IMG/VR virus record: IMGVR_UViG_3300030433_002548
Location: 5,251-69,250 of that record
From: a virus
Lineage: Duplodnaviria > Caudoviricetes
Direction: 5' to 3' (one strand)
Length of the DNA: 64,000 nt
Of this stretch, positions 30,823 to 62,013 are shown in pieces; within the stretch, counting starts at the first letter, position 1, and every line of letters begins with the position of its first letter. Both the position numbers and the translations under genes were made by a program. Below the pieces are notes generated by a model. The model was given only the letters and a program-made list of their open reading frames with translations, was not told the origin of the DNA and ran no database searches.

Positions 30823-33045
30823 TTATGCAGAGTATTTAATAATAACAACACCAGGTCCCCCTGGACCACCATATGTATGAGAAGGGGATCCACCTCCACC
30901 TCCACCTGAACCGGTGAGGTTCTTAGCTTGCATCTGTATTCTAGTTGCCTGAGCAGTTCCACCAGACGATGGGTGTGAACCACCGGCACCGCCATGACCA
31001 CCTGCTCCTCCAACAGAAGCATCAGCGGAACCACCTCCTCCTCCACCACCGAAGTAGGCAATAGAGCTATCAGGTCCAGGACCACCTACACCAATACTGT
31101 ATGGAATGGCAGGAATCGCTTGTCCATTTCCACCGGCACCACCTGCGTTACCAGGTGCATCAGAACCACCACTAGCAGCACCGCCGCCAGCGCCAGCACC
31201 ATTTCCTGGGTTACCTCCTGGTCCTGCTGCCTGTCCACCAGAATTTCCATATCCAGTCCAGGTTCCAGTTCCGTCAGATGGTGCTGAGAAACTACCACTT
31301 CCTGCTTTACCGTTTGTTGCGGGAGGATAATGTGGATTTGTGGATGGGTTATTTTGTCCAGCACCACCGCCACCTGATGCGTTGGTCGCAGGTGCTCCTG
31401 GTTGACCACCAGGTCCAGAATCATGACCACCACCGCCACCACCCATAGCAGCATGTTCATAAGGACCAGCAGGGTTCTTAAGTGCAGATCTTTCTCCTGG
31501 ATATGCTCTAGTTGCAGATCGCCCAGATTGGGGATTGCCTGGTGGAGCATATCCACATCCTTGTCCTCTTTCTCCGACGACTACTTCACATGTTGTATTT
31601 GCGGTGAAGGTGTAACCTGGATTGACAAGTACTCCTCCTCCACCACCGCCACCACCAGACCACTTAGCGGGAGAATCAGCAGATGCTCCACCACCTCCAC
31701 CACCAACAATCAGCACTGCTGCTGGGAATGGTGATTCACCACTAGGAATGGCAAACTGAAGCATACCATCTCCAGGTCCAAATGAAGGTCCAGGATTTCC
31801 TGCATAAGTAGGACCTGCAAAAACGTGATATACTTCATCATTGGTATGATCTTTATGAATAAATCCACCAGTTGCTTTGGCATATGTTAAATCATAATCT
31901 GAAGGTAATTCATATCGGAAGACAACGATTCCAGGTCCACCATCTCCTCCAAGAGTGCCCCATGCTGTCGGCGGACTGTAATATCTTGAGCCAGTTTGAG
32001 AAGGTACATTTGAGTCCGATCTTGTGGCTCCACCACCGCCGCCACCGCCGCCTGTAGCAAATCCACCATGTCCACCACCGTTAGATTTTGGATTACCACC
32101 AGGATCAGCTCTTGCAAACCATCCTTCACTAAATCCAGTTCCACCAGTTCCAAGCATGGGACCATCATCTGATCCACCGCCACCGCCACCTGCTCCGCCA
32201 ACGCCTCTACCAGGAGTATCGGACCCACCATGTCCAGGGTGAGTGGTTCCTCCGCCACCTCCACCCCAAATTGATCTGGGTGATGGTAAAAATGGTCCTA
32301 AAATTGTTGATGGATATCCATCACCACCGGGTCCACCACCCTTTGGTGTTCCTGCATTAGTTCCAGCATTGCCGCCTGCACCACCTCCGCCGCCACCTCC
32401 GTGACTGCCCCCCTGACCTCCAGCACCACCACTTTGAGCACCAGAATCTGTGTTAGCAGATCCAGGAGCATTTGCAGGTGGAAATGCTCCACCACCGCCA
32501 GATCCACCAGGAGTTAATCCACTTTTTGCTGCCCCACCTGGGTATGCACCTGCTCCACCACCACCACCGGCAGTTCTTGTTGTTGGTCCACCAGGATCTG
32601 TGAATGAACTAGGTGTCCCATTAGTTCCAGGAGTATCTTGTGTTCCTGACCAAGTTCCTTTACCACCAGTTCCAACCGTGACTGGATAAGTTCTGTTAGC
32701 AATAGTTGTGGATCCACTGTAAACGCCTCCACCGCCTCCACCACCACCATTATCTCCAGCGCCACCGCCACCGCCAGCAACGATGAGATAATCTAACGTT
32801 GATGCATTTGCAATATCAGTTACTACAAAGGTGCCAGGATTAAAGAAAATGTGACACCTATATTTGGTTCCAGGAGATGGATCAAGATATTCATGAATCA
32901 CACCACCAGATGCAGAGGCACCTAGAGAAGGTGTAGCAGCACCACCACCAGCAGCAGAGGCACCGAAACCAAAACCACCAATACCTCTTGCAATACCAGT
33001 AAAGACTGGTTTTTCTTTCTTATTAAATTCGTTAAAGATACCCAT
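30823..33045 (-). CDS. Glycine-rich fibre-tip/adhesin-like protein (type C, two tandem Gly-rich domains)
   Basis: 740 aa; ASGG..HIFFNPGTF..DYLIVAGGGGG...GGPGIVVFRY, then a second unit ATGG...GGPGVVIIKY. Confidence 0.8.
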   Translation of the reverse strand: MGIFNEFNKKEKPVFTGIARGIGGFGFGASAAGGGAATPSLGASASGGVIHEYLDPSPGTKYRCHIFFNPGTFVVTDIANASTLDYLIVAGGGGGAGDNGGGGGGGGVYSGSTTIANRTYPVTVGTGGKGTWSGTQDTPGTNGTPSSFTDPGGPTTRTAGGGGGAGAYPGGAAKSGLTPGGSGGGGAFPPANAPGSANTDSGAQSGGAGGQGGSHGGGGGGGAGGNAGTNAGTPKGGGPGGDGYPSTILGPFLPSPRSIWGGGGGGTTHPGHGGSDTPGRGVGGAGGGGGGSDDGPMLGTGGTGFSEGWFARADPGGNPKSNGGGHGGFATGGGGGGGGATRSDSNVPSQTGSRYYSPPTAWGTLGGDGGPGIVVFRYELPSDYDLTYAKATGGFIHKDHTNDEVYHVFAGPTYAGNPGPSFGPGDGMLQFAIPSGESPFPAAVLIVGGGGGGASADSPAKWSGGGGGGGGVLVNPGYTFTANTTCEVVVGERGQGCGYAPPGNPQSGRSATRAYPGERSALKNPAGPYEHAAMGGGGGGHDSGPGGQPGAPATNASGGGGAGQNNPSTNPHYPPATNGKAGSGSFSAPSDGTGTWTGYGNSGGQAAGPGGNPGNGAGAGGGAASGGSDAPGNAGGAGGNGQAIPAIPYSIGVGGPGPDSSIAYFGGGGGGGSADASVGGAGGHGGAGGSHPSSGGTAQATRIQMQAKNLTGSGGGGGGSPSHTYGGPGGPGVVIIKYSA

Positions 33046-33058
33046 TATTTACCTCCTA

Positions 33059-33838
33059 TCAACCGAAGCGGAAGCTGCCATTATTTGTAGCAAAGGTTTT
33101 ATAGTTATTTGCCTCTGTATTTGTAGATCCATTATAATGAATACCAAATGTAACAATGTCTATGTCGCTTGTAGTGGCAGAAAGTGTAACTGTTGTGCCT
33201 GAACCAACTCTTGCAACAGTACTAATGCCACTGACACCTTGAGGTTTCAGTGTAATATTTGTTCCAATACCTGTGGGTCCTGTCGTGTTACCAAGACCAG
33301 CATTTGTAGATGCCTGAGTAAAGATAACAGAAACTGTATGGAATGAATTCTTAACAGCAGGGAAGTTGGTAATAGAAACAATGCCAACTGCACCATTTGC
33401 AATATCGTGAGTAAACACTGTTCCATTATTGCAATCACACTCTAATGTCACAAGAGATGATGTAAATGCGGTGGTTGATCCTGTACTAACAGTCTCTGAA
33501 GCATCTTTGACCTCAACACCACCCTTAAATGTTACTGCCGTGCCAGGTCTTGCTGTGATGATTCCAGTAACCTCAAGACCAGATCTTGCGGTAACAACAC
33601 CAACAGAGTCAATATTAGTTACATCTTCATAGGTCACTACACCAGTAAAGGTAGCGGCAACACCGGTAATATTATTGACGGTAATATCAGGAGTTCCAGT
33701 TAATCCCGTGGCATTACCAGTCACATCACCTACAAAACTGGTAGCGGTCGCAACACCAGTTACATTTATACCTTTATTAAATGAAATTGGTGAAGCACCA
33801 TCCTCAGATTTTATAGTATTGACTCTAATTTCAGACAT
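33059..33838 (-). CDS. Short tail-fibre-like protein with extended C-terminal domain (type A')
   Basis: 259 aa; MSEIRVNTIKS, YEDVTNIDSVGVVTAR repeat, C-terminal TLECDCNNGTVF...DIDIVTF domain. Confidence 0.75.
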   Translation of the reverse strand: MSEIRVNTIKSEDGASPISFNKGINVTGVATATSFVGDVTGNATGLTGTPDITVNNITGVAATFTGVVTYEDVTNIDSVGVVTARSGLEVTGIITARPGTAVTFKGGVEVKDASETVSTGSTTAFTSSLVTLECDCNNGTVFTHDIANGAVGIVSITNFPAVKNSFHTVSVIFTQASTNAGLGNTTGPTGIGTNITLKPQGVSGISTVARVGSGTTVTLSATTSDIDIVTFGIHYNGSTNTEANNYKTFATNNGSFRFG

Positions 33839-33872
33839 CTGTTTCTAAAATCCTTTTGCTATGTTTTATTTA

Positions 33873-34301
33873 TCAAAATACACCCAAGACATTTGTAGCT
33901 AGAGTGGTTCCAGATCCTATGTGGAAAGTAGCACCAACTGCTACATGAATATTACCCTCTCTACAAAATGCGATATTACCTGAAGCATCATCTGATGTGA
34001 TGGAAACTGATGTCCCTGCTCCGATGGGGATTTCTTCAGGTGTCTTAAAAAATCTATTTAATACTGATGTTTGATCACTTGATAATGCAGTAGCAAATCC
34101 ACTTACACCAGTCAGTTGAGAACCATCACCAACAAATTGTGTCGCAGTAACAATACCACCAGAAACAGTGACCGCACTACCAACTTTTAGAGTAGCAGCA
34201 GTCGCAACACCACTGATATTCAGATTGTTTGTATCAAGAGTTCCATCAGTTCCCACACCTGACGAAAAATTAGCTAACCTAGTTGCGTCTGTCAGTGCCA
34301 T
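33873..34301 (-). CDS. Fibre-associated structural protein (type D)
   Basis: 142 aa; GIVTATQFVGDGSQLTGV stalk motif plus a C-terminal FATAL...IGSGTTLATNVL domain. Confidence 0.7.
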   Translation of the reverse strand: MALTDATRLANFSSGVGTDGTLDTNNLNISGVATAATLKVGSAVTVSGGIVTATQFVGDGSQLTGVSGFATALSSDQTSVLNRFFKTPEEIPIGAGTSVSITSDDASGNIAFCREGNIHVAVGATFHIGSGTTLATNVLGVF

Positions 34302-34320
34302 CTATCTACACTTTTTTACT

Positions 34321-34328: not shown

Positions 34329-34333
34329 GACAC

Positions 34334-34363: not shown

Positions 34364-34807
34364 TTATTCAGGTGTGGTCAGAACCCATGCTGTTGCTGGG
34401 TCTGATTGATAATTACTTTCATTCCAGACGTAATACTTACCTGCTGCTACTTCAGCATCAGTCAATGCAGGTGCTGCACCTGGAGTTGATGGTGGTTCCC
34501 ACTGTGCTGCTGTGCTACTAATAACCCAAGAAGCATGTGGTTGCTGACTGATAAAGATGTCAGTAGAACCAACACCCAGAGTAGCAACATTACTCATGTA
34601 GGTATATCCAATACCTGCATAGTTGCCTCTCATGTTGCCATTATATGAAGTTTGCTTCCAGTTGGTATCAGCACCAAGGAGTTTCTGACAGAAAGCAACA
34701 CCAATGCTTTCCGTTTCAGTTCCATTAGAATCGGATGTGTCATCGTTGCTCACAACAATGACTTGAGTTACCACATTGTTTTCATCTAGTTGTGCAAAAT
34801 GAGCCAT
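34364..34807 (-). CDS. Conserved phage protein of the MAHFAQLDENNVV family (fibre-associated)
   Basis: 147 aa; WKQTSYN...RGNYAGIGYTY...YVWNE...W. Confidence 0.8.
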   Translation of the reverse strand: MAHFAQLDENNVVTQVIVVSNDDTSDSNGTETESIGVAFCQKLLGADTNWKQTSYNGNMRGNYAGIGYTYMSNVATLGVGSTDIFISQQPHASWVISSTAAQWEPPSTPGAAPALTDAEVAAGKYYVWNESNYQSDPATAWVLTTPE

Positions 34808-34870: not shown

Positions 34871-36838
34871 TCAAGTGGGGTAAGCGATAACAACGATACC
34901 AGAACCACCATTACCACCTCTTGCTCCGGTATCACCGTTTCCTACGGTGCCGCCACCGCCACCTCCGCCTCCGGTGCTATTTCCACCATGTCCACCTTTG
35001 TTTGCTCCAGGATCAGGAGACGGTGCTTTGATACCATCTTCACCATCAAATAATCCACCAGTTCCACCAGCGCCAGCAGTATAAGCATTTTCGCATCCAC
35101 CACCACCACCGCCTCCGGTGCCACCTGCTCCTCCATTACCGCCACCGTTGACGGCACCGCCACCACCTGCCCAGGCGTAAGTGGTTCCCAAAATACTATT
35201 TGGTAATCCGTTACCTCCACCAGCTGCTGTTTGTGCAGAATTATCTCCATTAGATCCAGTTCCACCGGCACCACCACCTCCGCCAGATCCATAACCTGGA
35301 CCACTATTAGAACCAGATCCACCAGGATATCCACCAGGTTGCCCGTTTGTCCCACCAGAACCACCAGGAGCACCACCACCACCAGATCCGTTGGATGCAC
35401 CACCATTTCCACCAGCCCGGCTAGGTTGGAGTTGTCCACCACCACCACCGTATCCAGCAGTTAGTGAATTAAAAGTGGTATTACTACCAGGTTGGTGAGT
35501 CAAAGATTCGGGTCCACCAGTTATGGCATTACCACCACCACCAATTACAACTGCTCTTGGTGATGCAGGAAGTGGTTGTCCAGTTGCAGCAAGAACACCA
35601 CCGCCACCGCCGCCGCCACCATTATTGGATCCACCAGCACCACCTCCACCTACAATTAGATAGTCAATCGTAAGTGCTGTTGGATTATGGAAAGTTCCAG
35701 ATGATGTAAAGGTGTGAATTGTTTTACCACCAGCAAAACTAATAGAACCACCAGTTGCTTTTGCTGATGCAGTAGTTTGAGCGATTTTATAACGAACTAC
35801 AACAACACCAGAACCACCAGAACCACCAGCACCTTGGTTTCCTCCTCCATTTAAGTGACCACCGCCACCTCCACCACCACCAGTAGCATGAGTTCCAGAT
35901 TCTGCATTATTATTACTAACGTCACCATTTCCACCTCCACCGGCACCACCACTACCAGCTAAACTATCACTACCTGGTGGTGTCATTCTAACTCCGCCAC
36001 CGCCACCACCGGCATAAGTTACTGGATTTGTTGGTCCATAAGCATATACATTAGGTGCTCCAGGACCACCATCTCCTGCGGCTGATTGTGAAGCTGAACC
36101 ACCATCACTACCAGCACCACCGGCACCACCACCGCCACCGGATGGTCCACTACCAGATCCACCACCAGCATAACCTTGAGTTATTGGATAAGGATTCGAT
36201 ACTGGAAGAGGTGATGTAAGAGGACTTGGTGTTGTTGGATTAAGACCAGGACCACCACCATTTGATGATGGACCAGGAGTTCCTGATGCACCACCACCAG
36301 ATCCACCAAATGCACCACCACGATCAGCACCATCTGGTGCTTCCATTCCACCTCGCCCACCACCATAGGCAGTCAGAGAAAATCCAGTGGTGTTTCCACC
36401 ATTTGTTGCTGCTGGTGCCGGAGTTACGCCGCCCCTGTTGGATCCTGCAGGACTTCCAACACCTCCAGACCCGATGACAATTGGATATGAGGCAACTGAA
36501 ACTGAAATTCCTGGTGCATCATAAAATCCTCCAGCACCTCCACCACCACCGGAAGCACCACCGCCACCGCCACCAGCAACTAAAAGAACGTCAACCGTAT
36601 TATCAATGATGCCAAGTTCAGTTATTTGAAAGGTTCCTGCTGATGTAAAAATATGTGATCTATAAACAGCACCAGGAGGAGTATTATACTCGTTAATAAC
36701 ACCACCAGTTGCTGTGTGTCCAAAGGGTTGTTGTGCTAAAGCAGACTTACTTGTATGAAACTCTTTTTGTTTTCCGCTAGCAAGGAAAGAAAAAATATCT
36801 GATCCTCTATTATCTGCCTGAGAACTTCTTCCTGCCAT
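34871..36838 (-). CDS. Glycine-rich fibre-tip/adhesin-like protein (type C, two domains)
   Basis: 655 aa; ATGG..HIFTSAGTF...GGSGVVVVRY / AKATGG..HTFTSSGTF...GGSGIVVIAY. Confidence 0.8.
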   Translation of the reverse strand: MAGRSSQADNRGSDIFSFLASGKQKEFHTSKSALAQQPFGHTATGGVINEYNTPPGAVYRSHIFTSAGTFQITELGIIDNTVDVLLVAGGGGGGASGGGGGAGGFYDAPGISVSVASYPIVIGSGGVGSPAGSNRGGVTPAPAATNGGNTTGFSLTAYGGGRGGMEAPDGADRGGAFGGSGGGASGTPGPSSNGGGPGLNPTTPSPLTSPLPVSNPYPITQGYAGGGSGSGPSGGGGGAGGAGSDGGSASQSAAGDGGPGAPNVYAYGPTNPVTYAGGGGGGVRMTPPGSDSLAGSGGAGGGGNGDVSNNNAESGTHATGGGGGGGGHLNGGGNQGAGGSGGSGVVVVRYKIAQTTASAKATGGSISFAGGKTIHTFTSSGTFHNPTALTIDYLIVGGGGAGGSNNGGGGGGGGVLAATGQPLPASPRAVVIGGGGNAITGGPESLTHQPGSNTTFNSLTAGYGGGGGQLQPSRAGGNGGASNGSGGGGAPGGSGGTNGQPGGYPGGSGSNSGPGYGSGGGGGAGGTGSNGDNSAQTAAGGGNGLPNSILGTTYAWAGGGGAVNGGGNGGAGGTGGGGGGGCENAYTAGAGGTGGLFDGEDGIKAPSPDPGANKGGHGGNSTGGGGGGGGTVGNGDTGARGGNGGSGIVVIAYPT

Positions 36839-36841
36839 TTA

Positions 36842-37201
36842 TCAACCCTCTCTATCACCAAGAACTAATACATTAACTGCGTCTGAACCTTCGTTGTAAA
36901 TCTGAATAGTATCATTATTACTATTCAGAGTGATAGGATATGCATTCTCAAAGAAATATGTATCCTCTGTTGAGATACCTAATCTTGCAATTCTTGTAAT
37001 AGAAGTTGCTGTCCCCGCACCGCCACCTGATGCCACAGGGACAACATGCACCTGCACATTAGCAGTATTGGACGAATCCAAACTATGAATCTCAAGTGCT
37101 CGGATATATGCGGTCTTTGCCGATCCAACAGTATACACTGATGCCGTTGTTCCAGCAGCAACCTGTGTAATACTTCCTAATCCTACCTGTGCAAGAGCCA
37201 T
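36842..37201 (-). CDS. Small beta-rich adaptor-like protein (type B)
   Basis: 119 aa; ...DTYFFENAYPITL...VNVLVLGDREG. Confidence 0.75.
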   Translation of the reverse strand: MALAQVGLGSITQVAAGTTASVYTVGSAKTAYIRALEIHSLDSSNTANVQVHVVPVASGGGAGTATSITRIARLGISTEDTYFFENAYPITLNSNNDTIQIYNEGSDAVNVLVLGDREG

Positions 37202-37223: not shown

Positions 37224-38000
37224 TTAGACGAAGAGCATTGCTTTAAGCACGTTGGTTCCCTCTGGGACACCAACATATGTAGTAGCAGTGATAACACCAG
37301 CAACAACATTATTTACAGTTACATCTGGTGTACCAGAAAGACCCGTTGCATTACCAGTTAGATTACCAGTGACATTACCAACAAAACTTCCTGCTGTTGC
37401 TACACCAGTGATATTAATACCACCAGCGCCAGTGATACCATAACCTACAGGAACTTCAGCACCAAATTGTAATTGAGGAGCACCAGTTCCTGCACTATTA
37501 GCAAGTCTTGCAGCACGAACTCTACTATTATTTGTTAATGTGCCAGGTGTCTGAACATCACTACCGATACCAAGAATATCAGCAATAAAGTCATCATCCT
37601 CAGCAACGATTAAATCAGCATCACCATCAACTGATACTGTCGCATATTGTGTATATGCTACGTCAGATGTTGTGCTCGGAACAGAAACAATAACTGTGCT
37701 TCCAATACCAAGAACAGCATCAGTGTAGTAAATTACTGACCCTGCACCCTCTTCTGCAAGTGCAGTTCCAAGTCCAGCACTTGCAACACCATCAAGGTTA
37801 GAACCATCACCATAGAAAGCAGTAGCACTGACGATACCGCTTGCTCCACCAATGGTAATTGCAGTTCCAACTAAAACTGTCCCATTAACATCTAACTTAG
37901 CGTCAGGTTGAGTGCTACCAATACCAACAAAATTATTAGTATTGTCAGCACTTAAACTATTTTGATTAGCTAATTTACCAAGGTTGCGTGCTCTTGTCAT
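37224..38000 (-). CDS. Fibre protein, fusion of type D and type A modules
   Basis: 258 aa; internal SRVRAARLANSAGTGAPQLQFGAEVPVGYG repeats the type-A N-terminus; ends NVLKAMLFV. Confidence 0.75.
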   Translation of the reverse strand: MTRARNLGKLANQNSLSADNTNNFVGIGSTQPDAKLDVNGTVLVGTAITIGGASGIVSATAFYGDGSNLDGVASAGLGTALAEEGAGSVIYYTDAVLGIGSTVIVSVPSTTSDVAYTQYATVSVDGDADLIVAEDDDFIADILGIGSDVQTPGTLTNNSRVRAARLANSAGTGAPQLQFGAEVPVGYGITGAGGINITGVATAGSFVGNVTGNLTGNATGLSGTPDVTVNNVVAGVITATTYVGVPEGTNVLKAMLFV

Positions 38001-38022: not shown

Positions 38023-39063
38023 TCAATTTGGATATCGAATAACAACAATACCAGATCCACCATCACCACCAGTTGTAGCACCAGGGTGGAATCCACCACC
38101 TCCTCCACCACCAGTATTGGCAGTTCCAGGAACGCCTGCTGTTGGTGATGATCTACCAGCACCACCACCACCTGCTCCACCAGATCCAGCATCCACATTA
38201 TATCCACCACCGCCACCACCACCAGCAAACCATCCATCTCCAGATGGACCTGGTGTACCAATCGGTGAAGGATTACCTGCGATTAAGCACTGAACTCCGA
38301 CTCCACCATTTCCGCCGCTGACCGATGGGGCATCTTCTCCGACAGCACCGGCACCACCACCGCCGCCACCGCATCTATCTCCTGGGAACCGTCCATCTCC
38401 GCCAGCATAACCTTCTACTGGATTATATCCACCAGCATTTCCAGCACCACCAGTATAGTTTGGTGCATTAGGACCAGTGCGACCAGCACCACCTCCACCA
38501 GAACCACCAGGTCCACCATTAGTACCTGAACCCCAAGGGTTAGGTTGTTCACCAGGAGCACCACCTCCACCACCACCAGTGGCAATGATGATTCCTGTTC
38601 CTTCTAACTCATTTCTCTGAGGAGAGTTGGGATCGATAGATGAATTTCCTCCAGCAACTCCAGGCATCCCAGTTGGAGTGGCATACGCACCACCTGCCCC
38701 TACAACAACCGTCGTATTTCCTGGTTGTACATTTACTGGATCACCTGCTCTTGGATGTCCTGAGAGATTTGTTCTGAAACCTCCGGCACCACCACCGCCA
38801 CCATATTGAGCAGATCCACTACCACCACCAGCAACAACTAGATATTCAACTTCACCTCCACCTGAGGATACATTAAGAGTAGCAGGTCCCGTGGTCGTAA
38901 AAATATGAACTTTATATCCAGTAATCGTTAATGTACTGTCACCACCAGTAGCAGTGATCGGTGAATTAATAAGTGGTGGTGGTTCAGGAGCTACCGCATC
39001 GGTTCCACTACGAAAAAAGTCGTCAAAGAATGATTGTGTTGGATTAGTAGAACGTGCGCCCAT
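38023..39063 (-). CDS. Glycine-rich tip protein (type C), 346 aa, MGARSTNPTQSFFDDFFRSG...
   Basis: Start moved from 39330 to the ATG at 39063, which follows an ATAAATA promoter and the stop of 39083..40060. Confidence 0.8.
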   Translation of the reverse strand: MGARSTNPTQSFFDDFFRSGTDAVAPEPPPLINSPITATGGDSTLTITGYKVHIFTTTGPATLNVSSGGGEVEYLVVAGGGSGSAQYGGGGGAGGFRTNLSGHPRAGDPVNVQPGNTTVVVGAGGAYATPTGMPGVAGGNSSIDPNSPQRNELEGTGIIIATGGGGGGAPGEQPNPWGSGTNGGPGGSGGGGAGRTGPNAPNYTGGAGNAGGYNPVEGYAGGDGRFPGDRCGGGGGGAGAVGEDAPSVSGGNGGVGVQCLIAGNPSPIGTPGPSGDGWFAGGGGGGGYNVDAGSGGAGGGGAGRSSPTAGVPGTANTGGGGGGGFHPGATTGGDGGSGIVVIRYPN

Positions 39064-44077: not shown

Positions 44078-44110
44078 AAAAAAGACCACTCAGTCTACTG
44101 ACTGGTGGTC
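44078..44110 (-). terminator. Intrinsic terminator after the oxygenase cluster
   Basis: GACCAC-CAGTC-agta-GACTG-a-GTGGTC-T6, followed by an ATAAATA late promoter at 44066-44072. Confidence 0.75.
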
Positions 44111-46028: not shown

Positions 46029-46036
46029 GTTCTACC

Positions 46037-46657: not shown

Positions 46658-46694
46658 ATACCTATAATGTATTCAGGTCTATTATATATGATGC

Positions 46695-53142: not shown

Positions 53143-53559
53143 TCAAATATCGGTGTCGCCAAGGAGTTGATAGTTGACAGCACTACCAATACCTGCTCCT
53201 CCAACTGCTGCTGCTGGTTGTGTGATCTCAACCACCACAAAGTCTCTATCCGTTAAAACAAGTGGATAATTTGGTTCAAAGAAGAATGTTTCATTAGACG
53301 CAACATCAACTCTTGCTAATCTGTGTGCTGTGACACCATATCCAGTTGCTTCTGGTCTCGCAGTGCCACCAGGATAGATATACAACGAAGAAGTTGCGGT
53401 TGCTAATCCAGTGTTGTGCATGATCACGCCACGCACATAAGTGGTGGATGCAACACCAACAGGACCACCAGTATTCGTCACACCAACCGTGAAGATACCT
53501 ACGGTTGTGATCCCGGTAACTGATTGGACAGCCTGTAACTTTGTTCTTTTAAGTCCCAT
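53143..53559 (-). CDS. Small beta-rich adaptor-like protein (type B)
   Basis: 138 aa; ...NETFFFEPNYPLVL...VNYQLLGDTDI. Confidence 0.75.
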   Translation of the reverse strand: MGLKRTKLQAVQSVTGITTVGIFTVGVTNTGGPVGVASTTYVRGVIMHNTGLATATSSLYIYPGGTARPEATGYGVTAHRLARVDVASNETFFFEPNYPLVLTDRDFVVVEITQPAAAVGGAGIGSAVNYQLLGDTDI

Positions 53560-53581: not shown

Positions 53582-53941
53582 TTAGTTAAACAGAGCAGCA
53601 TCGAGTTCAGTGAACCCTGCTGGCAGACCTGTAAGTAATGCACCACTACCCTCATATGAAGTAGCAGTAACAACTCCAGCATTTACATTACCAAGAGTAA
53701 CATTTGGAGCACCAGCGATTGTGGTTGCTGAACCAGTAACATTACCAGTTAAGTTTCCAGTAAATGATGTGGCAGTGATGATACCAGCACCAGCATCAAC
53801 ACCAGAAGCATTGATTGTAACAGCAGCACCAACAATAGCACTACCAGTTGTAGTTACACCTGTGACGACAGCACCATCAGGTAACTCAGGTGATGTCCCT
53901 GCAGTTCTACCTCTTAAACTTGTAACTCTAAGTGTTGCCAT
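53582..53941 (-). CDS. Short tail-fibre-like stalk (type A)
   Basis: 119 aa; MATLRVTSLRG, ends TELDAALFN. Confidence 0.75.
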   Translation of the reverse strand: MATLRVTSLRGRTAGTSPELPDGAVVTGVTTTGSAIVGAAVTINASGVDAGAGIITATSFTGNLTGNVTGSATTIAGAPNVTLGNVNAGVVTATSYEGSGALLTGLPAGFTELDAALFN

Positions 53942-54639
53942 CAGAGATCTCCGATTTGAAGGACATCAATAATCATGGTCTTACCAGCACCAACGGTGAC
54001 TGCCACACCAGAGTTAATCTCAATATTAGGTGTAACGCTGACGATAATAGAAGTATTCACACCAGCCGTAGTGGTGTCAAGCAGCATATCCTCCTTGACT
54101 TGCTGGAATCTATCAATGTAACTGAATGGTGATACAGTTGTTTCATCGGAATACTTGATCGCAGTGCCAAGTCCTCCACCACCGCCACCACCAGCAATGC
54201 TGACGGCAACAGTTTTGGATGATGAATCATACTGAACGGTATTACCAGTGCCTACGAAGTTAATCGCAGTGATAACACCAGTGGTGATTTGTGTTCCTGC
54301 TGATTGGATACCAACATTAAAACCACCCGTGGCAGATAATGCACCATCAAGTGTTTGATCTCCAGCAGAGTTGATTGCGTCAGCAACACGGAAGTCATCA
54401 AAGATCTGAAACTCAAGTACATCTCCCTCTGTCGCAGCAGACAGAAGAGTGACCGATGCTCCATCTCTTGCGGTATAGTCGCTACTATCTACAAGGCGAA
54501 CACCATTACGGAATACCGCAATCTGATTGATTCTATATCCACCAGTTACAGTAAACAGTGTTTGGTTCGCTGTCGCGGTCGCACTGATAACTTTGGCGGC
54601 AACATTATTGGTTAATGTTATAGGATTACCTATTGCCAT
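53941..54639 (-). CDS. Fibre-associated structural protein (type D)
   Basis: 232 aa; N-terminal ATANQTLF..GY....VFRNGVRL..DY domain, C-terminal GLGTAI...VGAGKTMIIDVL domain. Confidence 0.75.
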   Translation of the reverse strand: MAIGNPITLTNNVAAKVISATATANQTLFTVTGGYRINQIAVFRNGVRLVDSSDYTARDGASVTLLSAATEGDVLEFQIFDDFRVADAINSAGDQTLDGALSATGGFNVGIQSAGTQITTGVITAINFVGTGNTVQYDSSSKTVAVSIAGGGGGGGLGTAIKYSDETTVSPFSYIDRFQQVKEDMLLDTTTAGVNTSIIVSVTPNIEINSGVAVTVGAGKTMIIDVLQIGDL

Positions 54640-54665: not shown

Positions 54666-57600
54666 TTAGCGGGCATTGGCACCCCCACCAAACAAGTCAA
54701 CTGTTGGTGCTTCTGCCCATGCGGCATAGAAGATAGTGTGTGAATTTAGATTAAGAGTACTAGCAGTATTGCGAATCTTAAATCCATTACTCAAGAAATC
54801 AACATCTCTTGAATTATCAGTAGAATCATCACCACGCACATTTTCAGCTACTGATAAGTTGATAGCCAAAAACTTGTCATTTGGATTAAACTTTGCACGT
54901 TCATTATCGTACATACACCAATCATAATTTGTTCCGTAATTATCAAGATTACGCATCAGGATTATTGATGGACGGAATCCCAATTCTATAAAGGGACCAT
55001 CTGAATTTCCATTTCCTTCAAAGGTGCCAAATTTCTGTAGGCCAGGGACATCGTGCCAAAGATATGCAATTTGAGTATTTGCAGCATTTCCATTTCCATT
55101 TACATAGAAAAGGGATGATGTGGGTGCTGTTTCAGTCGCACCTTGAGCTCCACTAGCATCATCTAAATTCATAATACTCCATGTAGTGCCATTATACATG
55201 AACAACCTCCATGAAGTTGTTGCTCCCGTGTCTTTCTGGATTATGAAATTAGGTGCTTCTGAAAGTCCGTGAGAGATAGATGGTGTACCAGATGCAGAAC
55301 CAGTGAACTTAATGATACTAAAACCTTGTTTTGTTCCAACTGATGCACCTGTAGGGGTGATATCTCCACCAGTTAATCCTGCCGCAGCAGCAGTTGCATA
55401 ACCTACATCATCAACATTAAAAGTATTTTTACTTCCACCAGCTTTCCAGCACCATCCCACATAATTATTAGAACTGTTGATATCACCTGCTGTACCTATA
55501 CTAAAACCATTACTATCAAAAGAGGTTAGGAGACCACTATCAGTATATGTGCCCTGACTAGAATGAGATCTTAATGCATTAGTTGGTCCTCTAAGCACAT
55601 CAAACCATGCAGGAAAACCATTATTAGTTCTTTGCTTTGTGAATACAAGATCTGGACTAAAATTGTAACCTGTTATACTTCTTGCACTATTATTACCAGT
55701 ATAAGTAACAATACCAACATACTGATCAGGACGTGAAATCACAGTTTCTGGACGAACATTAGCAGCATTTATTGGTTGGAAACCATCAGGTGGTGGGAAC
55801 TTGAAGGGTTTTTGTCCAAAGTTGCATCTTGTAATACTGCCACTACCACCACCAGTTCCAATAGATGGCACTATGGTTTTGCCACTTAATCCAGAATTAA
55901 ATGCAACTCCTAAGGATACTCCATTTTTATAGTATGTTAGCGTTCCTGCATCCATATCAAGTGCTACACCAAGTGTATCCCCCACAGATAGAGTAGAACC
56001 ATAAGAACTGTTGCCAGGATATTTATTTCCACCATTAGCATAGTAATAAAATACTTGCCCCGTACTGATATCATAACTACTCGCATCCACTTGTGCGGCT
56101 CCAAGCATCATATTATTTGAACCAACAGTTGTAAATTCCCAATACCACCGTCCAGAAGTTACTGGAATAGTTCCTACAACATAATTTGTTCCACTGGAGT
56201 CAACTTGTGCTTGTAAGTTATTCTCAGTTATAGTTGCATTTTTTTGATGTAGGGGATTCAAAGTACAATAACCAGTCTCTTGTCCACGAACTGTGTTGAT
56301 ATCAGTGTTAAATGGGTTGAAGGTGGTTGCTGCTGCGTCATTTACTACTGAGGGAGTTGAAGGAGACACGGCTGCCTCAGTTGCAGAAGTTGGTGACTGA
56401 CAACACAGAAGTTTTGTGTTGGTTACATTAGTCAGTGGTGCTGATGGTGGTGTGAATTTCTTGGTATAAAGTGCAGTTCCTTTGACAATACGAACATTAG
56501 AAATAAAACCATCCATGTCATAATTATCAGCATAATCTGCACCGATATCTACTGGAACAGTAGAATCATTCATCGTGTCATATGAACTTACATCTAATGT
56601 ACCAGTTAATTCGCCATTATCAAATAATCTAATTGTATTACCTTCTCTTGAAACAGCACAATGCACCCATTTATTATAATGAGTTTGACCCGATGTTACA
56701 GCTGGTTCATTACCACCAGAATAATAATAAAATTGATTTTGTCCATTATACATGGACCAGAACCAGGATGATGATGATGGATTACCACCATACTTCTGAA
56801 CTATGGATCTATATGAACTGCTCTTGTTATAAACAAATGCTTCCATGGTAAAATCACCACTACCGAAAGTGAAGTCGGCGTGATCTGCTATTGATAGACT
56901 ATCATTAGTGCCATCAAAAGCAACAGCACCATCAGTGATCTTGTCAAGTTTAGAACTACCACTCACACCTGATGGAGTGTCTGGGAGAATGTCTGGGGAG
57001 GGTGATGGTGGATTGAATATTTTATCGCCTACACTCTTTCCAGTGGTAGAATATTTCTGAATTCCACTATAGACGCGGAAATCAGCCATATGTAAAGATG
57101 CTCCACCATTAGAGGCATCATATCTACCAATTTGATACCCCACATCAGCATAGTTTGAATTATCTGTTCCTGTATCATAGAGAACACCATCAACGATTAA
57201 TTGACCAGTTGTTCCAGTTCTCTGATACACATAATGTCTGGTTCTATTCGCAACTAAGGAATTATCTATAGATATATTAGCTGGTTCGCCACTATTATAC
57301 TTAACTTGAAACTTACCAGTAGTAGTGCTTGAAACGAATTGAACATAAGTGCCCGATTCAGATTGTGCTGTCAAAATTCTAGCATTTCTATTTCCTTGAT
57401 CACCAGTTGCCGTAAAATGTCCCCAAAACTCAATTGTAAAATCACCAGTCCCAAAAGGAAGAGAACCGGATGAAAATGTTACTCTTGAGTTACTGCTTCC
57501 ATCTCCAGTAAATGTTGAATTTTTAACATAAAACATGTCACCTGGACCTACAAATGTGAGGTTGTCAGATGAACCAGTTTTTGAAGAAGCAGTACATGCA

Positions 57601-59270
57601 ATAGAAGGACTTACATCACCAACACCACCAACTAATGGAAGTGCAAGAGTACACTTCCAGGCATATTGATCTGCTAACTTTTCATTTGTGGTGATACCTG
57701 TGATATCAGCTCCCATCCCAGAGTGAGATGTACAATAATAATATAAGGTATTTGGAGCATTATGTGGAACAGTGATGGTTGTTGCTGCACCTGTGATTGC
57801 TGCTACACCATTAACGTATTCTGATCCACCACCATGACTTCCGTTACTAGTCGCAGAGAATCTAAATGGGTGAGATGATACTGTGCTATCGGATGTATCA
57901 AAGGTATATGTAGCACCACGAATCAATCCTGTGATTGTATCTTGCTTGACTCCATCAATATAATACTTGTTTCCACCACCATCATTATAGACAGTGACAG
58001 CATATCCTACATTTTGCTTACTTCCAAATACACCAACTCCTGCCTGTGCTCCACCTTGAGTTGTATTCAGAATGGGTCTTACACCTGATACATTTGGATT
58101 ATCAAGTTCTAATGATCCACCAAAGTTTACTGGTGTCCAGTCATTTCCTTTTCCTGATTGATCTTTACCGATTGGTGAGTTTCCATCCATCGGGAGGTAG
58201 AAACTGTTAGCACCAGTGTCAGTAAGTCCATCAGTAAGTAGTTCGTATCCTCTCCCAGTGCCTAAGTCAACTTCAATACCTTTCATATAAACATATGGAC
58301 CATTACCACTATCATATGACCATTTTACATTATTAAATTGTCCATTAATAGTGATTTCATGAGTTTGATCTCCATTTGCTAAATTAGTTGTTACATCAGT
58401 ATCATTAACTTGTAATGTAGCACCATTTCCAGCAACTGAAAGAAAAGTATTTAACCTTACTTTTGCAACTGTTAAATTTTTTGATGAAATATCAAATGTG
58501 AGTGTATTGCCAACAGTGGGTCGGGTGCCACTAGTATAACTAGAACCAATAGTTCCACCAAAAGCATTAGAAAGAGGATATGTACTATCAACAGGTCCTG
58601 AAATAGAACTACTCCAAGTCGTTCCATCATTAACACTTAATTGTGTAAATGCTCCAGTATATTTTTTAGGTTTCCAAGTGTTGGTGAGTGGATCAGTAAA
58701 TCCAAAGTTTTCAGGTCCAAGTGATTGTCCGTCTATAAAATAGCACTGAGACATGGCACCATCAAATGGTTTTCTGTCATTATAAACTTCATGTCCAATA
58801 CGATGCGCTATATTTCTATTAATACCAGTGGATGTTGATAAATTAGATGAAAGACTCTGCAGTTGTCCATTAATATACAATTTTGCCTTTGGACTTGCAC
58901 TTTCATCGTGTCGCACCACCAGGTGATACCATCCATTAGTGTCCCTTAAGACTGCACTAGTTTCAGCAGAACTACTACCACCATCCCAATTGTTAAAGTT
59001 AAAAGTTGCGTCACTGGAATTTTGATTTAAGTATATCAATCCATATCCAGCATTATTAGTCGCAGTATGTGCGCTAAAAATGGCAAGTTGGGCATCAACA
59101 GTGCCTCTCTTTGCCCAACTACTCCAAGTCCAAACATTTCTATTCCCTGTAGAACTAAAAGTTTTGGATAGATATTGAGTTTTACCCTTATCAAACTTTA
59201 AACTACCATCAATAACCTGAGCACCAGTTGCCTTACTCGGGGTAATAACCTGAGGAATTGCAATACCCAT
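54666..59270 (-). CDS. Large multidomain virion adhesin-like protein (LamG/concanavalin-like x3, cupredoxin-like, SPRY)
   Basis: 1534 aa; WTWSSWAKR..GWYHLVV (LamG), HPFRF..YYYCTSHSGMG (cupredoxin-like), FTIEFW and FTMEAFV (LamG), GRWYWEF..GVALDMDAGTLTYYKNG (SPRY). Confidence 0.8.
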   Translation of the reverse strand: MGIAIPQVITPSKATGAQVIDGSLKFDKGKTQYLSKTFSSTGNRNVWTWSSWAKRGTVDAQLAIFSAHTATNNAGYGLIYLNQNSSDATFNFNNWDGGSSSAETSAVLRDTNGWYHLVVRHDESASPKAKLYINGQLQSLSSNLSTSTGINRNIAHRIGHEVYNDRKPFDGAMSQCYFIDGQSLGPENFGFTDPLTNTWKPKKYTGAFTQLSVNDGTTWSSSISGPVDSTYPLSNAFGGTIGSSYTSGTRPTVGNTLTFDISSKNLTVAKVRLNTFLSVAGNGATLQVNDTDVTTNLANGDQTHEITINGQFNNVKWSYDSGNGPYVYMKGIEVDLGTGRGYELLTDGLTDTGANSFYLPMDGNSPIGKDQSGKGNDWTPVNFGGSLELDNPNVSGVRPILNTTQGGAQAGVGVFGSKQNVGYAVTVYNDGGGNKYYIDGVKQDTITGLIRGATYTFDTSDSTVSSHPFRFSATSNGSHGGGSEYVNGVAAITGAATTITVPHNAPNTLYYYCTSHSGMGADITGITTNEKLADQYAWKCTLALPLVGGVGDVSPSIACTASSKTGSSDNLTFVGPGDMFYVKNSTFTGDGSSNSRVTFSSGSLPFGTGDFTIEFWGHFTATGDQGNRNARILTAQSESGTYVQFVSSTTTGKFQVKYNSGEPANISIDNSLVANRTRHYVYQRTGTTGQLIVDGVLYDTGTDNSNYADVGYQIGRYDASNGGASLHMADFRVYSGIQKYSTTGKSVGDKIFNPPSPSPDILPDTPSGVSGSSKLDKITDGAVAFDGTNDSLSIADHADFTFGSGDFTMEAFVYNKSSSYRSIVQKYGGNPSSSSWFWSMYNGQNQFYYYSGGNEPAVTSGQTHYNKWVHCAVSREGNTIRLFDNGELTGTLDVSSYDTMNDSTVPVDIGADYADNYDMDGFISNVRIVKGTALYTKKFTPPSAPLTNVTNTKLLCCQSPTSATEAAVSPSTPSVVNDAAATTFNPFNTDINTVRGQETGYCTLNPLHQKNATITENNLQAQVDSSGTNYVVGTIPVTSGRWYWEFTTVGSNNMMLGAAQVDASSYDISTGQVFYYYANGGNKYPGNSSYGSTLSVGDTLGVALDMDAGTLTYYKNGVSLGVAFNSGLSGKTIVPSIGTGGGSGSITRCNFGQKPFKFPPPDGFQPINAANVRPETVISRPDQYVGIVTYTGNNSARSITGYNFSPDLVFTKQRTNNGFPAWFDVLRGPTNALRSHSSQGTYTDSGLLTSFDSNGFSIGTAGDINSSNNYVGWCWKAGGSKNTFNVDDVGYATAAAAGLTGGDITPTGASVGTKQGFSIIKFTGSASGTPSISHGLSEAPNFIIQKDTGATTSWRLFMYNGTTWSIMNLDDASGAQGATETAPTSSLFYVNGNGNAANTQIAYLWHDVPGLQKFGTFEGNGNSDGPFIELGFRPSIILMRNLDNYGTNYDWCMYDNERAKFNPNDKFLAINLSVAENVRGDDSTDNSRDVDFLSNGFKIRNTASTLNLNSHTIFYAAWAEAPTVDLFGGGANAR

Positions 59271-59283: not shown

Positions 59284-60720
59284 TCAGCTATAGTTCAGTG
59301 CAGCACCCGCAAGCAACTGCGTTCCTCCTGCTCCTACTCTATTTACCGTGAATGAAATCAAACTGATTGCACCATCTGCTGTAGGCATACTTGGATCTGC
59401 TCCTGATGGGAATAAGAAGAATGTGCTGAATCCAACTGTGGTAATACCAGAGTTGATGATTCTAACTGTATGAGAGTCTCCTTCTGTTCCACCCTTAACA
59501 GTAATCGTAGAGATACCAGATACTGTAAGTTTATGATCTTGTGCTGAACTCAAGTCCAGTGTGGTTACAATACCAGAAACTGAAGCAGCAGCGGTAGAAA
59601 TACCAACTGCAAGACCAGTCAGTCCTGAACCATCACCTGTGACAGCAGTAGCCGCAAGAGTTCCAGTGACTGTTACACCAGTCGCTGAGGTAGCAAGTTT
59701 TTCACTGTTGTCATATCTAAGCGATACTGCACCATTTTGTGATGCTTGAATTATAAACTCATTATCATCAGCGTTTTTAACTTGGAAATAGTTTGTATTT
59801 AATTGTAAAATTCCAGTTCCAACGTCTTTGATGAAACTATTACTACCATCATGATAAATCTGTAGATCACCATCATTTCCAAACTTTGCTCTCACATCGT
59901 CAGCAAGAGTCAATCCTCCACCAACTGTTGTTATTCCAGCGGTGACATGAAGTCCACCAGCAGTGATACTTACACCGCCACCGACAACTTTAACACCAGA
60001 TCTTGCAGTGACGATGCCAATAGAATCAACATTGGTGACATCATCATAAGTTAGAACACCACCAACAGTCAGATTACCAGTGATATTACCAGTGGTCATT
60101 GTGATGGCAGTACCAATCACATTCTCTGTGTTAGCAACACCAGTCAGACCAGAACCATCACCAAAGAAACTATTTGCAGTGACAACACCAACATTCAGAA
60201 CTGCTGTGTTATTAGAGTCAGCAGCACCAGTAGCGTTTGTTGTGCCAATACCAACACTGGTTGTAGTGCTAATACCAGTGTCGTTCGCAGAGAACTTACC
60301 ACCAGCAACGCCAGTCAGTGCTGAACCATCACCAATAAAACTAGATGCCGTGACAACACCAGTATAATGTGCTGTGACAGCAGTGGTGTGTCCAACAACA
60401 GTTAAGTTACCACCAACAGTGAAGTTGTCATTAGCATTTGTTACGTTGGCAGCATTAAATGCTTTATATGCGACTGCCTCAATGACATCGCCACTTTGTG
60501 CTCCACCACCTGATACATCAAAGGTGGATCCATTATTGGCGTCATAATCCTGTCCCTCAATCTGCTTAGCGCCATTGAAGAAGACATCTAGGTATCCAAT
60601 CGTATACCCCGATGCAAAGGTAAACGTAGTTGTGATTCCAGTGGGTTGAAATGTCTGTCTAGCAACAACAACCGAGGAATCACTCGGTGCTCTTCCAATA
60701 TATCCGTTTCTATCTGCCAT
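59284..60720 (-). CDS. Tail-fibre-like protein with A'-type C-terminal domain
   Basis: 478 aa; GYLDVFFNG..DY N-domain, YDDVTNVDSIGIVTAR, FGNDGDLQIYHDG repeats, C-terminal TTLDLSSAQ...ISLISF. Confidence 0.8.
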   Translation of the reverse strand: MADRNGYIGRAPSDSSVVVARQTFQPTGITTTFTFASGYTIGYLDVFFNGAKQIEGQDYDANNGSTFDVSGGGAQSGDVIEAVAYKAFNAANVTNANDNFTVGGNLTVVGHTTAVTAHYTGVVTASSFIGDGSALTGVAGGKFSANDTGISTTTSVGIGTTNATGAADSNNTAVLNVGVVTANSFFGDGSGLTGVANTENVIGTAITMTTGNITGNLTVGGVLTYDDVTNVDSIGIVTARSGVKVVGGGVSITAGGLHVTAGITTVGGGLTLADDVRAKFGNDGDLQIYHDGSNSFIKDVGTGILQLNTNYFQVKNADDNEFIIQASQNGAVSLRYDNSEKLATSATGVTVTGTLAATAVTGDGSGLTGLAVGISTAAASVSGIVTTLDLSSAQDHKLTVSGISTITVKGGTEGDSHTVRIINSGITTVGFSTFFLFPSGADPSMPTADGAISLISFTVNRVGAGGTQLLAGAALNYS

Positions 60721-60721
60721 A

Positions 60722-61261
60722 TCAGGAGACTCCTGTCAGGATGCTGAGTGATGCGTCGATTGCGCTTGTCGTATCACAATAGATTCTCAATTCATCAGTT
60801 GCCTCAAGTAATGTCTTACCTGTATCTGAGATGACGAATGAACTTCCAGCAGGAACAGGAATCTTACTCGCAATGGCAACGGTGATTCCAGTGCTGGCAT
60901 CCAGCGTCTCTAGTGTCAGATTAACTGAGTTGTTGGTGTTATTAGCGAATGTTCCACCAATCAAAATACTCTTGGTTGCTGCAGGTGATGTATATGCAGT
61001 CGTAGGACCAAGGAATCTAACCGTTTGATTAGATGCCGCTGCAGTGTTGGTAGAAGCACGATCAACAAAGATCGTAGTGCCACTAATTGAGTGAACTCTG
61101 GTTCCGGCAATAAAGTTGCCGTTGTCAACCAAATCAGAAACACCAATACCAGTGTTTGCTGTCACCGTAATAGCGGTGCTAGCAATACCCACAGAGCTAC
61201 CTGAATAGGTGGTAACAATACCTGCCGCTCTCGTTAATTTATTTGAAAAAGCTTCTGCCAT
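60722..61261 (-). CDS. Beta-rich adaptor-like structural protein (type B-like, larger)
   Basis: 179 aa; YTSPAATKSILIG...IPVPAGSSFVI...LLEATDELRI. Confidence 0.7.
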   Translation of the reverse strand: MAEAFSNKLTRAAGIVTTYSGSSVGIASTAITVTANTGIGVSDLVDNGNFIAGTRVHSISGTTIFVDRASTNTAAASNQTVRFLGPTTAYTSPAATKSILIGGTFANNTNNSVNLTLETLDASTGITVAIASKIPVPAGSSFVISDTGKTLLEATDELRIYCDTTSAIDASLSILTGVS

Positions 61262-61287
61262 TGTTCTTTAAGTGTTAAATGTATTTA

Positions 61288-62013
61288 TTAACCGCCGAGA
61301 GCGATTGCGAGTCCAAGTGAAACACCTGGTGCAATCGTTACCGATGCAATACCAGATGAAATATCTACGCTTTGAACGTTAGTACCAGATGTTGTTTTGA
61401 AATCAACTAGGGTAACACCCGTTCCAACAAAGGTGCCTTCAGATGCGACACCAATTTGACCAAGACCAATAAATGATGTTGCTGTAATAACACCAATAGC
61501 ATTGATGTCACTTGCAACATAAAGTTGACCACCAGTAGTGGTGATTCCACCGCTGCTTGCAAGAGTTGTAAATCCAGCAACTGTTAATGTATCAGTGACC
61601 GTAAGGTCCTGCATGTTGGCATCATCAAATGTGATGTCATCAACAAACAGGTCACCAGTGATTCTGGTATCACCATAAACATACAATGCCGTGGTGCCTG
61701 TACTAACAGGACCACGGACATCTAAAGTATATTCGGGGAAACCAGTTCTAATACCAACTGATTGTCCTGCACCAGTTGCAGAATCAGTTGTGACGACGAA
61801 CCCAGTGCCACCAGATCCAACCTTAAGATCTTGGGATAATGTAGTTACACCTGTAACACTGACATCTGTGACGCCAATGCCACCAAAAACATGGAGGGTA
61901 AATGAAGGTACAGATGTACCAACACCAACTCTACTATTATCTGCGTCTGCAAGAAGTAGATTGGTGTTGACCTCTAGACCATTTTTGACTACAAAATTCT
62001 TATTGACAGCCAT
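61288..62013 (-). CDS. Tail-fibre-like protein (MAVNKNFVVKNGLEV family)
   Basis: 241 aa; RVGVGTSVP..TLHV repeats, ends GVSLGLAIALGG. Confidence 0.75.
   Translation of the reverse strand: MAVNKNFVVKNGLEVNTNLLLADADNSRVGVGTSVPSFTLHVFGGIGVTDVSVTGVTTLSQDLKVGSGGTGFVVTTDSATGAGQSVGIRTGFPEYTLDVRGPVSTGTTALYVYGDTRITGDLFVDDITFDDANMQDLTVTDTLTVAGFTTLASSGGITTTGGQLYVASDINAIGVITATSFIGLGQIGVASEGTFVGTGVTLVDFKTTSGTNVQSVDISSGIASVTIAPGVSLGLAIALGG

Follow-up and report, generated by a model that had tools for sequence, protein, structure and literature searches.

In phages of the CBA120 and phiKp24 type, docking domains form part of the spike proteins themselves, and most of the tips are enzymes. The receptor-binding proteins of these systems, the CBA120-type tailspikes and the hyperbranched fibres of the Klebsiella jumbo phage phiKp24 (PMC9700779), come from consecutive genes and are carried jointly by a branched scaffold via specific docking modules. 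The T-even fibre is composed of separate segments and small connectors (gp34-gp35-gp36-gp37), is capped in T2, T6 and S16 by a separate polyglycine adhesin, gp38 (PDB 6F45), and has distal parts that are reshuffled by recombination. The tail fibre of the cyanophage Pam3 is gp24, a trimer of known structure, in which an N-terminal helix is followed by a TNF-like sandwich and then by a polyglycine lattice whose distal loops vary, and which the authors of the structure liken to S16 gp38 and to ALK (PMC9608196; PDB 7YPX/7YFW). Here we describe the fibre region of a virus (Duplodnaviria; Caudoviricetes) represented by IMG/VR record IMGVR_UViG_3300030433_002548, of which positions 5,251 to 69,250, a stretch of 64,000 nucleotides (nt) hereafter called the window, were analysed. 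In this region genes for a short fibre stalk (A), a small beta-rich protein (B) and a glycine-rich tip (C) follow one another in five complete A-B-C triplets. Host recognition is poorly understood in marine cyanophages, although mortality among the main primary producers of the ocean is shaped by it, and the locus suggests a testable building plan, in which an adhesin fold of a solved type, in about ten versions, is combined with short stalks and with an unnamed connector family pairing with specific peptide ends.

The C proteins share with Pam3 gp24 the fold of sandwich and polyglycine lattice, and in both of these cyanophage tips a short N-terminal helix lies ahead of the sandwich. In contrast, however, gp24 docks straight on the baseplate by a long helical domain, is the sole fibre protein of its phage and is served by a helical chaperone, gp25, whereas the window has ten C genes on separate stalks and a small partner, a jelly roll, is encoded ahead of the tip. 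The separate segments, the small connectors, the polyglycine adhesin set as a separate cap and the recombinational reshuffling of distal parts are all likenesses to the T-even fibre, although no sequence relation was found and a single fibre type there stands against at least five parallel joint types and about ten tips here. The likeness to the CBA120 and phiKp24 systems lies in the tips encoded in a row and in their co-display through docking modules, while the difference lies in a separate small connector family and in non-enzymatic polyglycine tips. The glycine-rich domain of ALK/LTK (PF12810; PDB 7LIR, 7NX3) also carries a polyglycine-II lattice on a TNF-like sandwich, and C3 passes its Pfam model, but this is the ectodomain of an animal receptor kinase and the kinship is one of fold only. 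What is new here is a separate family of putative connectors, in several orthogonal types, paired with polyglycine tips, and a literature search found no paper describing such a connector system.

The window is the last 64 kb of its contig and ends where the contig ends. Its left half is similar to T4-like cyanomyoviruses, most of all to Synechococcus phage Bellamy (78% identity over 38% of 25 kb) and next to S-SM2, and Bellamy is the only match of the fibre region at the DNA level. Open reading frame (ORF) calls placed every gene between 30.8 and 64 kb on the minus strand. An original prediction, made from the sequence of the window, had listed the coordinates of the five triplets, nine C genes within 30823-62013 and the C-terminal tails of the five A proteins; all of these were reproduced by the ORF calls and translations, and a tenth C gene was found cut by the common end of window and contig (Table 1). 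The region is best explained as the tail-fibre locus of a T4-like cyanomyovirus (Kyanoviridae) near Bellamy, expanded into an array of receptor-binding cassettes. In S-SM2 (locus L086, record positions 34045-36804) the syntenic order runs from the baseplate wedge genes through a homologue of p179 and one tail-fibre gene of 919 amino acids (aa) to a cluster of 2-oxoglutarate (2OG) oxygenases, and thus the cassette array holds the tail-fibre position. The single fibre of S-SM2 and the array of the window and Bellamy form a natural pair for a comparison of host range.

The proposal that the C proteins have a polyglycine fibre-tip fold was borne out both by Pfam and by a structural model. In a Pfam scan of C1, C2, C3, C346, C5 and C740, all except C3 scored above the gathering cutoff on PF21722 (Gly_rich_2) and C3 did so on PF12810 (ALK_LTK_GRD); these were the only families found, the gp38 family not being among the matches. 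C4, C4b and C4c were assigned via phrog_2295, which was matched by these three and by every other C gene scanned save C3, and via a model of C4 built from 65 aligned C proteins of the window and of related loci (predicted local distance difference test score, pLDDT, 83.5; predicted template-modelling score, pTM, 0.84). When this model was compared with 48,161 PDB representatives, the Pam3 fibre (7ypx_A) was matched at Z 15.0 (root-mean-square deviation 2.8 Å, 188 residues aligned, 32% identity) and the tail-tip protein of mycobacteriophage Bxb1 (9d93_Qa) at Z 14.9, followed by ALK/LTK glycine-rich domains at Z 5.6-7.2 and all remaining chains at Z<5. Foldseek agreed, matching the Pam3 fibre at E 2.8e-4. 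S16 gp38 (6F45) was not among the listed fold matches of the C4 model, although absence from the list does not exclude likeness. A phmmer search of the PDB with C4 and F333 returned nothing useful, and tblastn of C4 against phage records gave no match, probably through low-complexity masking. C thus falls in the Gly_rich_2/ALK-GRD fold family, and its nearest solved relative is Pam3 gp24 rather than T-even gp38, to which the original prediction had pointed as a known system. The C genes of the window encode proteins with a glycine fraction of 0.23-0.34, with two glycine-rich stretches in C2, C5 and C740. The first 30 residues of the C4 model, around a short helix, reached a pLDDT of just 53-60, and this weakly modelled segment fits one that might fold upon a partner.

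The A proteins match tail-fibre families of PHROGs, in agreement with their description as fibre-like, and share a recurring G-I/V-I/V-T-A-x-x-F-x-G-x-G motif. The start motif predicted for them, (S/A)x(L/I/V)x(V/A)xx(I/L), failed in the case of A5, a fusion protein in which it is internal (about residue 158). Their N-terminal plugs fall into few classes, which recur on several stalks of one genome.

Among the B proteins, B1, B3, B4 and B5 belong to phrog_20100, a family without assigned function. The C-terminal motif predicted for four B proteins, YP(I/L)xL...VN..(L/T/N)GD, needs amendment for B4, which reads YPIVM in place of YP(I/L)xL, and does not extend to B2, which lacks it, gave no match to phrog_20100 and belongs to a second family with orthologues of its own. 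A comparison of the B and B2 profiles by hhalign gave E 0.0077, two proteins matched both profiles, and a search of the ESM Atlas with B2 returned only unnamed viral clusters. Relatives of B4 at E<=0.001 comprised 3402 protein clusters (90% identity), mostly from marine metagenomes, and the B family amounts to 343 representatives at 50% identity. In tblastn searches of 50,697 phage records with B4 and B5, Bellamy alone was found, and a weak member of the family in P-SSM2 needed a profile search. A model of B4, built from 69 sequences (pLDDT 84.3), is a single jelly roll of eight strands, which in fold comes closest to the trimeric cement protein of phage KHP40 (Z 9.5, 109 residues) and after that to Ena spore-appendage subunits, an archaeal-virus turret protein and small capsid proteins. 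In BFVD the fold is found in many phage proteins of about 110 aa (TM-score up to 0.76), a few of them labelled virion structural protein. Variants among metagenome representatives carry a lectin-like (LamG-type) domain inserted in a loop (P0250), a loop enlarged by an insertion of about 90 aa (P0168) or two B domains in tandem fusion (P0167, P0211, P0243 and P0265), and these arrangements would fit an exposed, oligomeric structural protein. Fusions of a C head to a B tail and of B to A (P0165, P0247 and P0270) look like chimeras of assembly or recombination and were not used as Rosetta-stone evidence. A hidden B domain in the C-terminal domains of F333 and F259, or in p179, was considered and rejected (hhalign E 0.75, 0.66 and 0.03, over at most 12 columns).

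Conservation of the A-B-C order, which had been put forward as a check on the prediction, was found in Bellamy, in dozens of uncultured contigs and in the unrelated phage DSL-LC04. A scan of IMG/VR with the B alignment gave 75 loci, in which ORFs were called by a simple script and classed with profiles from the window proteins; the related loci were found via two B peptide patterns, so that the sample is biased to B-containing contigs. Together with the window and the Bellamy locus these held 76 distinct B proteins. An A-like gene lay upstream in 62 of the 73 cases with an upstream neighbour, against a background of about 20% of ORFs, and a glycine-rich gene lay downstream in 61 of the 69 with a downstream neighbour, against about 16%; both neighbours were present for 50 of the 76, counts which are inflated by the shared ancestry of the loci. 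The A-B-C order exceeds chance. The median intergenic gap is 22 nt between A and B and 3 nt between B and C, and eleven distinct B2-type proteins occupy the same slot between an A and a C gene. Bellamy has four A-B-C triplets, of joint types 4, 1, 2 and 3 in that order (the types are set out below). In DSL-LC04, a freshwater phage of 61.5 kb, a fibre gene with a type-2 tail (...AMAMIFGF-type) is followed by a B2-like 'putative lectin' and then by a glycine-rich protein (33% of 562 aa). A B2-like gene of S-SKS1 is flanked upstream by the gene for a 1727-aa baseplate protein and downstream by two for lectin-like proteins, and in P-SSM2 (L085, record positions 214874-220597) PSSM2_294 (113 aa), which matches the B profile at E 1.7e-6, lies between tail-fibre genes 293 and 295, the upstream fibre having a hydrophobic ...LILALGG-type tail. 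The contexts in P-SSM2 and S-SKS1 thus point to B-type proteins at fibre junctions generally and not solely before polyglycine tips. Elsewhere in P-SSM2 (L085, record positions 227615-233330) PSSM2_302 (106 aa), with a weak B match (E 0.004), follows tail-fibre gene 301.

When the triplets were sorted by type of B, five joint classes became apparent, in which the last 10 or so residues of A, the B subfamily and the first 30 or so residues of C go together. In type 1 an A tail of the ELDAALFN type is combined with a B end LGDTDI and a C head with DGHLLEYF; in type 2 the A tail is GKAIAxSMVFG and proteins of the B2 family take the place of B; type 3 has the A tail DTWLYGGG, the B end ITGDKEA and a C head starting MAPxKSSLA; type 4 has DITASLF, NGDTDV and a C head with LGN...F; and type 5 has an A tail VLKAMLFV or DWRDSSLF, a B end VLGD(R/K)E and a C head of the (L/F)xSGK type (LASGK in C5). 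In Mantel tests, on sequences related by descent, similarity of B was correlated with that of the A tail (r 0.57) and of the C head (r 0.47), with permutation maxima of 0.14-0.31, while the corresponding values were -0.01 for the A head, 0.13 for C residues 31-90, where the low r says little since this part is conserved in all C proteins, and -0.03 for the C tail. A cluster-based measure agreed with this pattern. Inside one joint type the A N-terminus and the size of C vary freely, C being either a one-domain protein of about 330 aa or a two-domain protein of about 650 aa, and B does not track C size. Each long contig has one copy per joint type; in the window types 1, 2 and 3 are followed by the oxygenase genes and then by types 4 and 5. 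The co-variation of A tail, B and C head as a unit suggests cognate sets of stalk, adaptor and tip. In most relatives the type-4 joint is on a stalk of 260-350 aa that starts with MADRNGYIGRAP and is encoded immediately after p179, whereas in the window the MADRNGYIGRAP start is on F478, which has no joint, and the type-4 joint is on the 140-aa A4 with another plug; this shows that stalks are shuffled between joints.

The claim that every tip is mounted via its own stalk and adaptor applies to the five triplets, but not to four of the nine C genes, which have no B of their own, two of them following a longer fibre gene and two another C gene. The B-less pairs, F333-C346 and F259-C740, have gaps of 12-13 nt with a GGAGG site. 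Among 166 distinct C genes, the predecessor was a B gene in 64 cases, a B2 gene in 12, a fibre gene in 37, another C gene in 20 and an unclassified gene in 20, the remaining 13 lying at the end of a locus or after a gene of the opposite strand. Three C genes in a row after a type-4 B are found in the window, L007 and L025 (each tip about 310-350 aa) and in L020 and L021 (one short and two of about 620-660 aa). The three C genes behind B4 could make a heterotrimeric tip or could be three alternatives for one socket.

The reading to which we incline, with moderate confidence, is that B jelly rolls join stalk peptides to tip peptides in a branched apparatus with many tips. The C protein would be a tip of the Pam3 gp24 kind, a beta-sandwich (TNF-like in the Pam3 paper) bearing a polyglycine lattice whose variable distal loops would touch the host, and the A protein would be a short, probably trimeric stalk with an N-terminal plug docking on the baseplate or on another fibre. 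B would be the jelly-roll joint, expected to bind the last 10 or so hydrophobic residues of its own A and the first 30 or so residues of its own C. With at least five distinct joint types that would not cross-react, the parts could self-sort into a fixed branched structure with many tips shown together, while recombination outside the joints would exchange stalks and tip domains. Virions of Bellamy, which has the same cassettes, carry 'branched fibers' on the baseplate and at the head apex as seen by electron microscopy, where the vertex facing away from the tail bears a cluster of fibres like those of the baseplate (PMC5646251). The branched adhesin system of the original prediction is thus supported by published micrographs, although the fibres seen there were not assigned to genes by Hua et al. 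'Interchangeable' tips are disfavoured, since up to five distinct joint types occur, one copy of each per genome, which argues for fixed, co-displayed positions. The original interpretation is partly supported: it stands as regards the fold of C, the fibre likeness of A and the gene order, and needs change as regards interchangeability and the comparison with gp38. The building plan, if it proves right, would account for the branched fibres of Bellamy and would make it possible to read host-range modules by rule in cyanophage contigs, of which metagenomes hold thousands. More broadly, and tentatively, with a little less than even confidence, we suggest that B and its sister B2 are widespread uncharacterised orthogonal connectors, each type recognising one fibre-tail and one tip-head peptide, a docking code by which marine cyanomyoviruses, and some phages not related to them, would build branched adsorption organelles with many tips out of interchangeable parts; these organelles could include head-apex fibre clusters, with host range evolving by recombination at the joints.

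Several points weigh against the connector model. Proteomic and structural work does not place A, B or C in a virion: of the 16 genomes compared by Sullivan et al. 2010 only P-SSM2 has the B-like gene (T4-GC289), which lacks orthologues in S-SM1, Syn9 and S-PM2 and is without a proteomics entry, so that virion proteomics extends to no B homologue, and the S-SCSM2R paper has no bearing on the A, B and C families. The fold match of B is generic, as Z 7-9.5 is usual for any jelly roll, and assigns no function, and at the E-value given above homology of B2 to B is not demonstrable. The A tail and the C head adjoin B on the DNA, and plain linkage could give part of the co-variation. Moreover, a small gene after a fibre gene, co-varying with the C-terminus of the fibre, is also the signature of a tail-fibre chaperone.

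B could accordingly be an assembly chaperone, which helps its own A or C to fold or trimerise and then leaves, as do lambda Tfa, T4 gp38 and Pam3 gp25, with A and C joining directly. Besides the small size of B, its place right after a fibre gene and its co-variation with the fibre end, this would suit the translational coupling of B to C across the short gap, and the beta-sandwich domain of the Pam3 chaperone is known to grip a glycine-rich domain (PMC9608196). However, B has no helical trimerisation domain, a Pfam scan of B1, B2 and B3 gave no significant match, chaperone families included, and Pam3 gp25, TfaMu, T4 gp38, gp57A and the Caudo_TAP/Tfa chaperones did not appear among the fold matches listed for B, the last being weak evidence. 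The chaperone gene of Pam3 is described as coming after the fibre that it serves, whereas B comes before C; inserted lectin-like domains and tandem duplications would be odd in a transient helper; and the B-like genes of P-SSM2 lie between two long fibre genes. We consider a chaperone role for B unlikely, though it is the main rival of the connector model.

A second possibility keeps the tips but makes them alternatives rather than co-displayed parts, so that the C proteins compete for the same sockets and a random or regulated subset is carried per virion or per fibre, as a form of bet-hedging on host range. The three C genes with related heads after one B4, with similar rows in L007, L020, L021 and L025, could be read in this way, as could the few A plug classes shared by several stalks per genome and the promoter-like motif that C4b and C4c each have of their own. 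In contrast, five clearly distinct joint types, once per genome, fit separate addresses, the C genes behind B4 could equally make a heterotrimer, and the sequence data gave no sign of regulation; alternative display is in our view improbable. The weakest explanation, that part or all of the cassettes encode appendages outside the tail, for example the head-apex cluster or whisker-like sensors, instead of infection-determining adhesins, draws on the likeness of the head-apex cluster of Bellamy to its baseplate fibres and on there being more cassettes than one set of six tail fibres needs, but it is very improbable given that the array is at the tail-fibre locus beside baseplate wedge genes and that C has the fold of a proven tail-fibre tip, and, being compatible with the connector model, it is no true alternative.

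Table 1. Genes of the fibre locus in order of transcription, with positions in the window.
Feature	Position	Strand	Evidence or remark
C0, glycine-rich, tenth C-type gene	62051..64000	-	Glycine fraction 0.23; 5' end lost at window/contig end; ends in the family's C-terminal strand
F241, fibre-like; N-terminus like a baseplate wedge initiator; hydrophobic ...AIALGG tail	61288..62013	-	phrog_8215, E 1.2e-32
p179, small conserved protein flanked by two fibre genes	60722..61261	-	phrog_26609, E 2.4e-85
F478, fibre or baseplate-proximal, MADRNGYIGRAP-type N-terminus	59284..60720	-	Translation, PHROGs scan, comparison with relatives
p1534, large structural protein; Laminin_G_3 repeats, SPRY, DUF7483	54666..59270	-	Pfam; phrog_19943 'virion structural protein'
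D232, fibre-like; one-base overlap with A1 start	53941..54639	-	phrog_18345 tail fibre
A1, 119-aa fibre stalk, ...ELDAALFN tail, joint type 1	53582..53941	-	PHROGs, tail class
B1, 138-aa jelly-roll protein, type 1	53143..53559	-	phrog_20100, E 9.5e-43
C1, 354-aa Gly_rich_2 tip	52067..53131	-	PF21722, 48.8 bits (cutoff 24.3)
A2, 123-aa stalk, hexapeptide repeats, ...AIAMSMVFG tail, type 2	51672..52043	-	Translation, Pfam, PHROGs, tail class
B2, 131 aa, sister family, between A2 and C2	51248..51643	-	No phrog_20100 match
C2, 661-aa tip, two Gly_rich_2 stretches	49250..51235	-	PF21722, 94.7 bits
A3, 171-aa stalk, ...DTWLYGGG tail, type 3	48710..49225	-	PHROGs, tail class
B3, 121-aa jelly-roll protein, type 3	48317..48682	-	phrog_20100, E 1.2e-39
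C3, 367-aa tip, ALK_LTK_GRD type	47210..48313	-	PF12810, 44.4 bits (cutoff 24.5)
Five 2OG-Fe(II) oxygenase-like genes breaking up the array	44090..47207	-	Translations; homologues in related loci
F333, longer fibre, A-type N-terminus and own C-terminal domain; C gene directly after	43045..44046	-	No similarity to B
C346, Gly_rich_2 tip, 12 nt 3' of F333, GGAGG site ahead	41992..43032	-	PF21722, 46.4 bits
A4, 140-aa stalk, ...DITASLFL tail, type 4	41544..41966	-	PHROGs, tail class
B4, 135-aa jelly-roll protein, type 4 (modelled)	41115..41522	-	phrog_20100, E 3.1e-48
C4, 344-aa tip (modelled)	40078..41112	-	phrog_2295; model
C4b, further tip behind B4	39083..40060	-	phrog_2295; head related to that of C4
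C4c, further tip behind B4	38023..39063	-	phrog_2295; head related to that of C4
A5, 258 aa, phrog_28668-type domain fused to A stalk, ...VLKAMLFV tail, type 5	37224..38000	-	PHROGs, tail class
B5, 119-aa jelly-roll protein, type 5	36842..37201	-	phrog_20100, E 1.5e-19
C5, 655-aa tip, two Gly_rich_2 stretches	34871..36838	-	PF21722, 80.3 bits
p147, small protein leading to last tip	34364..34807	-	PHROGs scan
D142, fibre-like domain protein leading to last tip	33873..34301	-	PHROGs scan
F259, longer fibre leading to last tip	33059..33838	-	PHROGs scan
C740, 740-aa Gly_rich_2 tip, 13 nt 3' of F259	30823..33045	-	PF21722, 52.5 bits, two stretches

The motif TAAATANYTARAA occurs in 13 copies against 2 expected, on the minus strand only and within 34314-62050, where it lies 10-25 nt ahead of gene starts in the fibre region. 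It precedes four A genes, B1, B3, C4b, C4c and several other fibre genes, but never stands between a B gene and its following C. It is a candidate late promoter and differs from the exact T4 late promoter TATAAATA, for which no enrichment was found (4 copies against 2.9 expected).

Homologues of the 2OG-Fe(II) oxygenase-like proteins are present in 23 of the 37 related loci of at least 15 kb, with two or more in 20 loci. The cluster lies in or beside the array in L005, L033, L037, L040, L042, L046, L047, L060, L065, L066, L070 and L073, and likewise in Bellamy, S-SM2 and DSL-LC04. These enzymes may hydroxylate the glycine- and proline-rich tips.

In the middle of the locus, p1534 (1534 aa) is a large lectin-like structural protein with three Laminin_G_3 stretches. 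The Atlas cluster of p179 bears the automatic name 'virion structural protein family', and p179 homologues are found in S-SM2, P-TIM68 and S-B05, with partial matches in pelagiphages and Methylophilales phages; p179 may be another kind of fibre connector.

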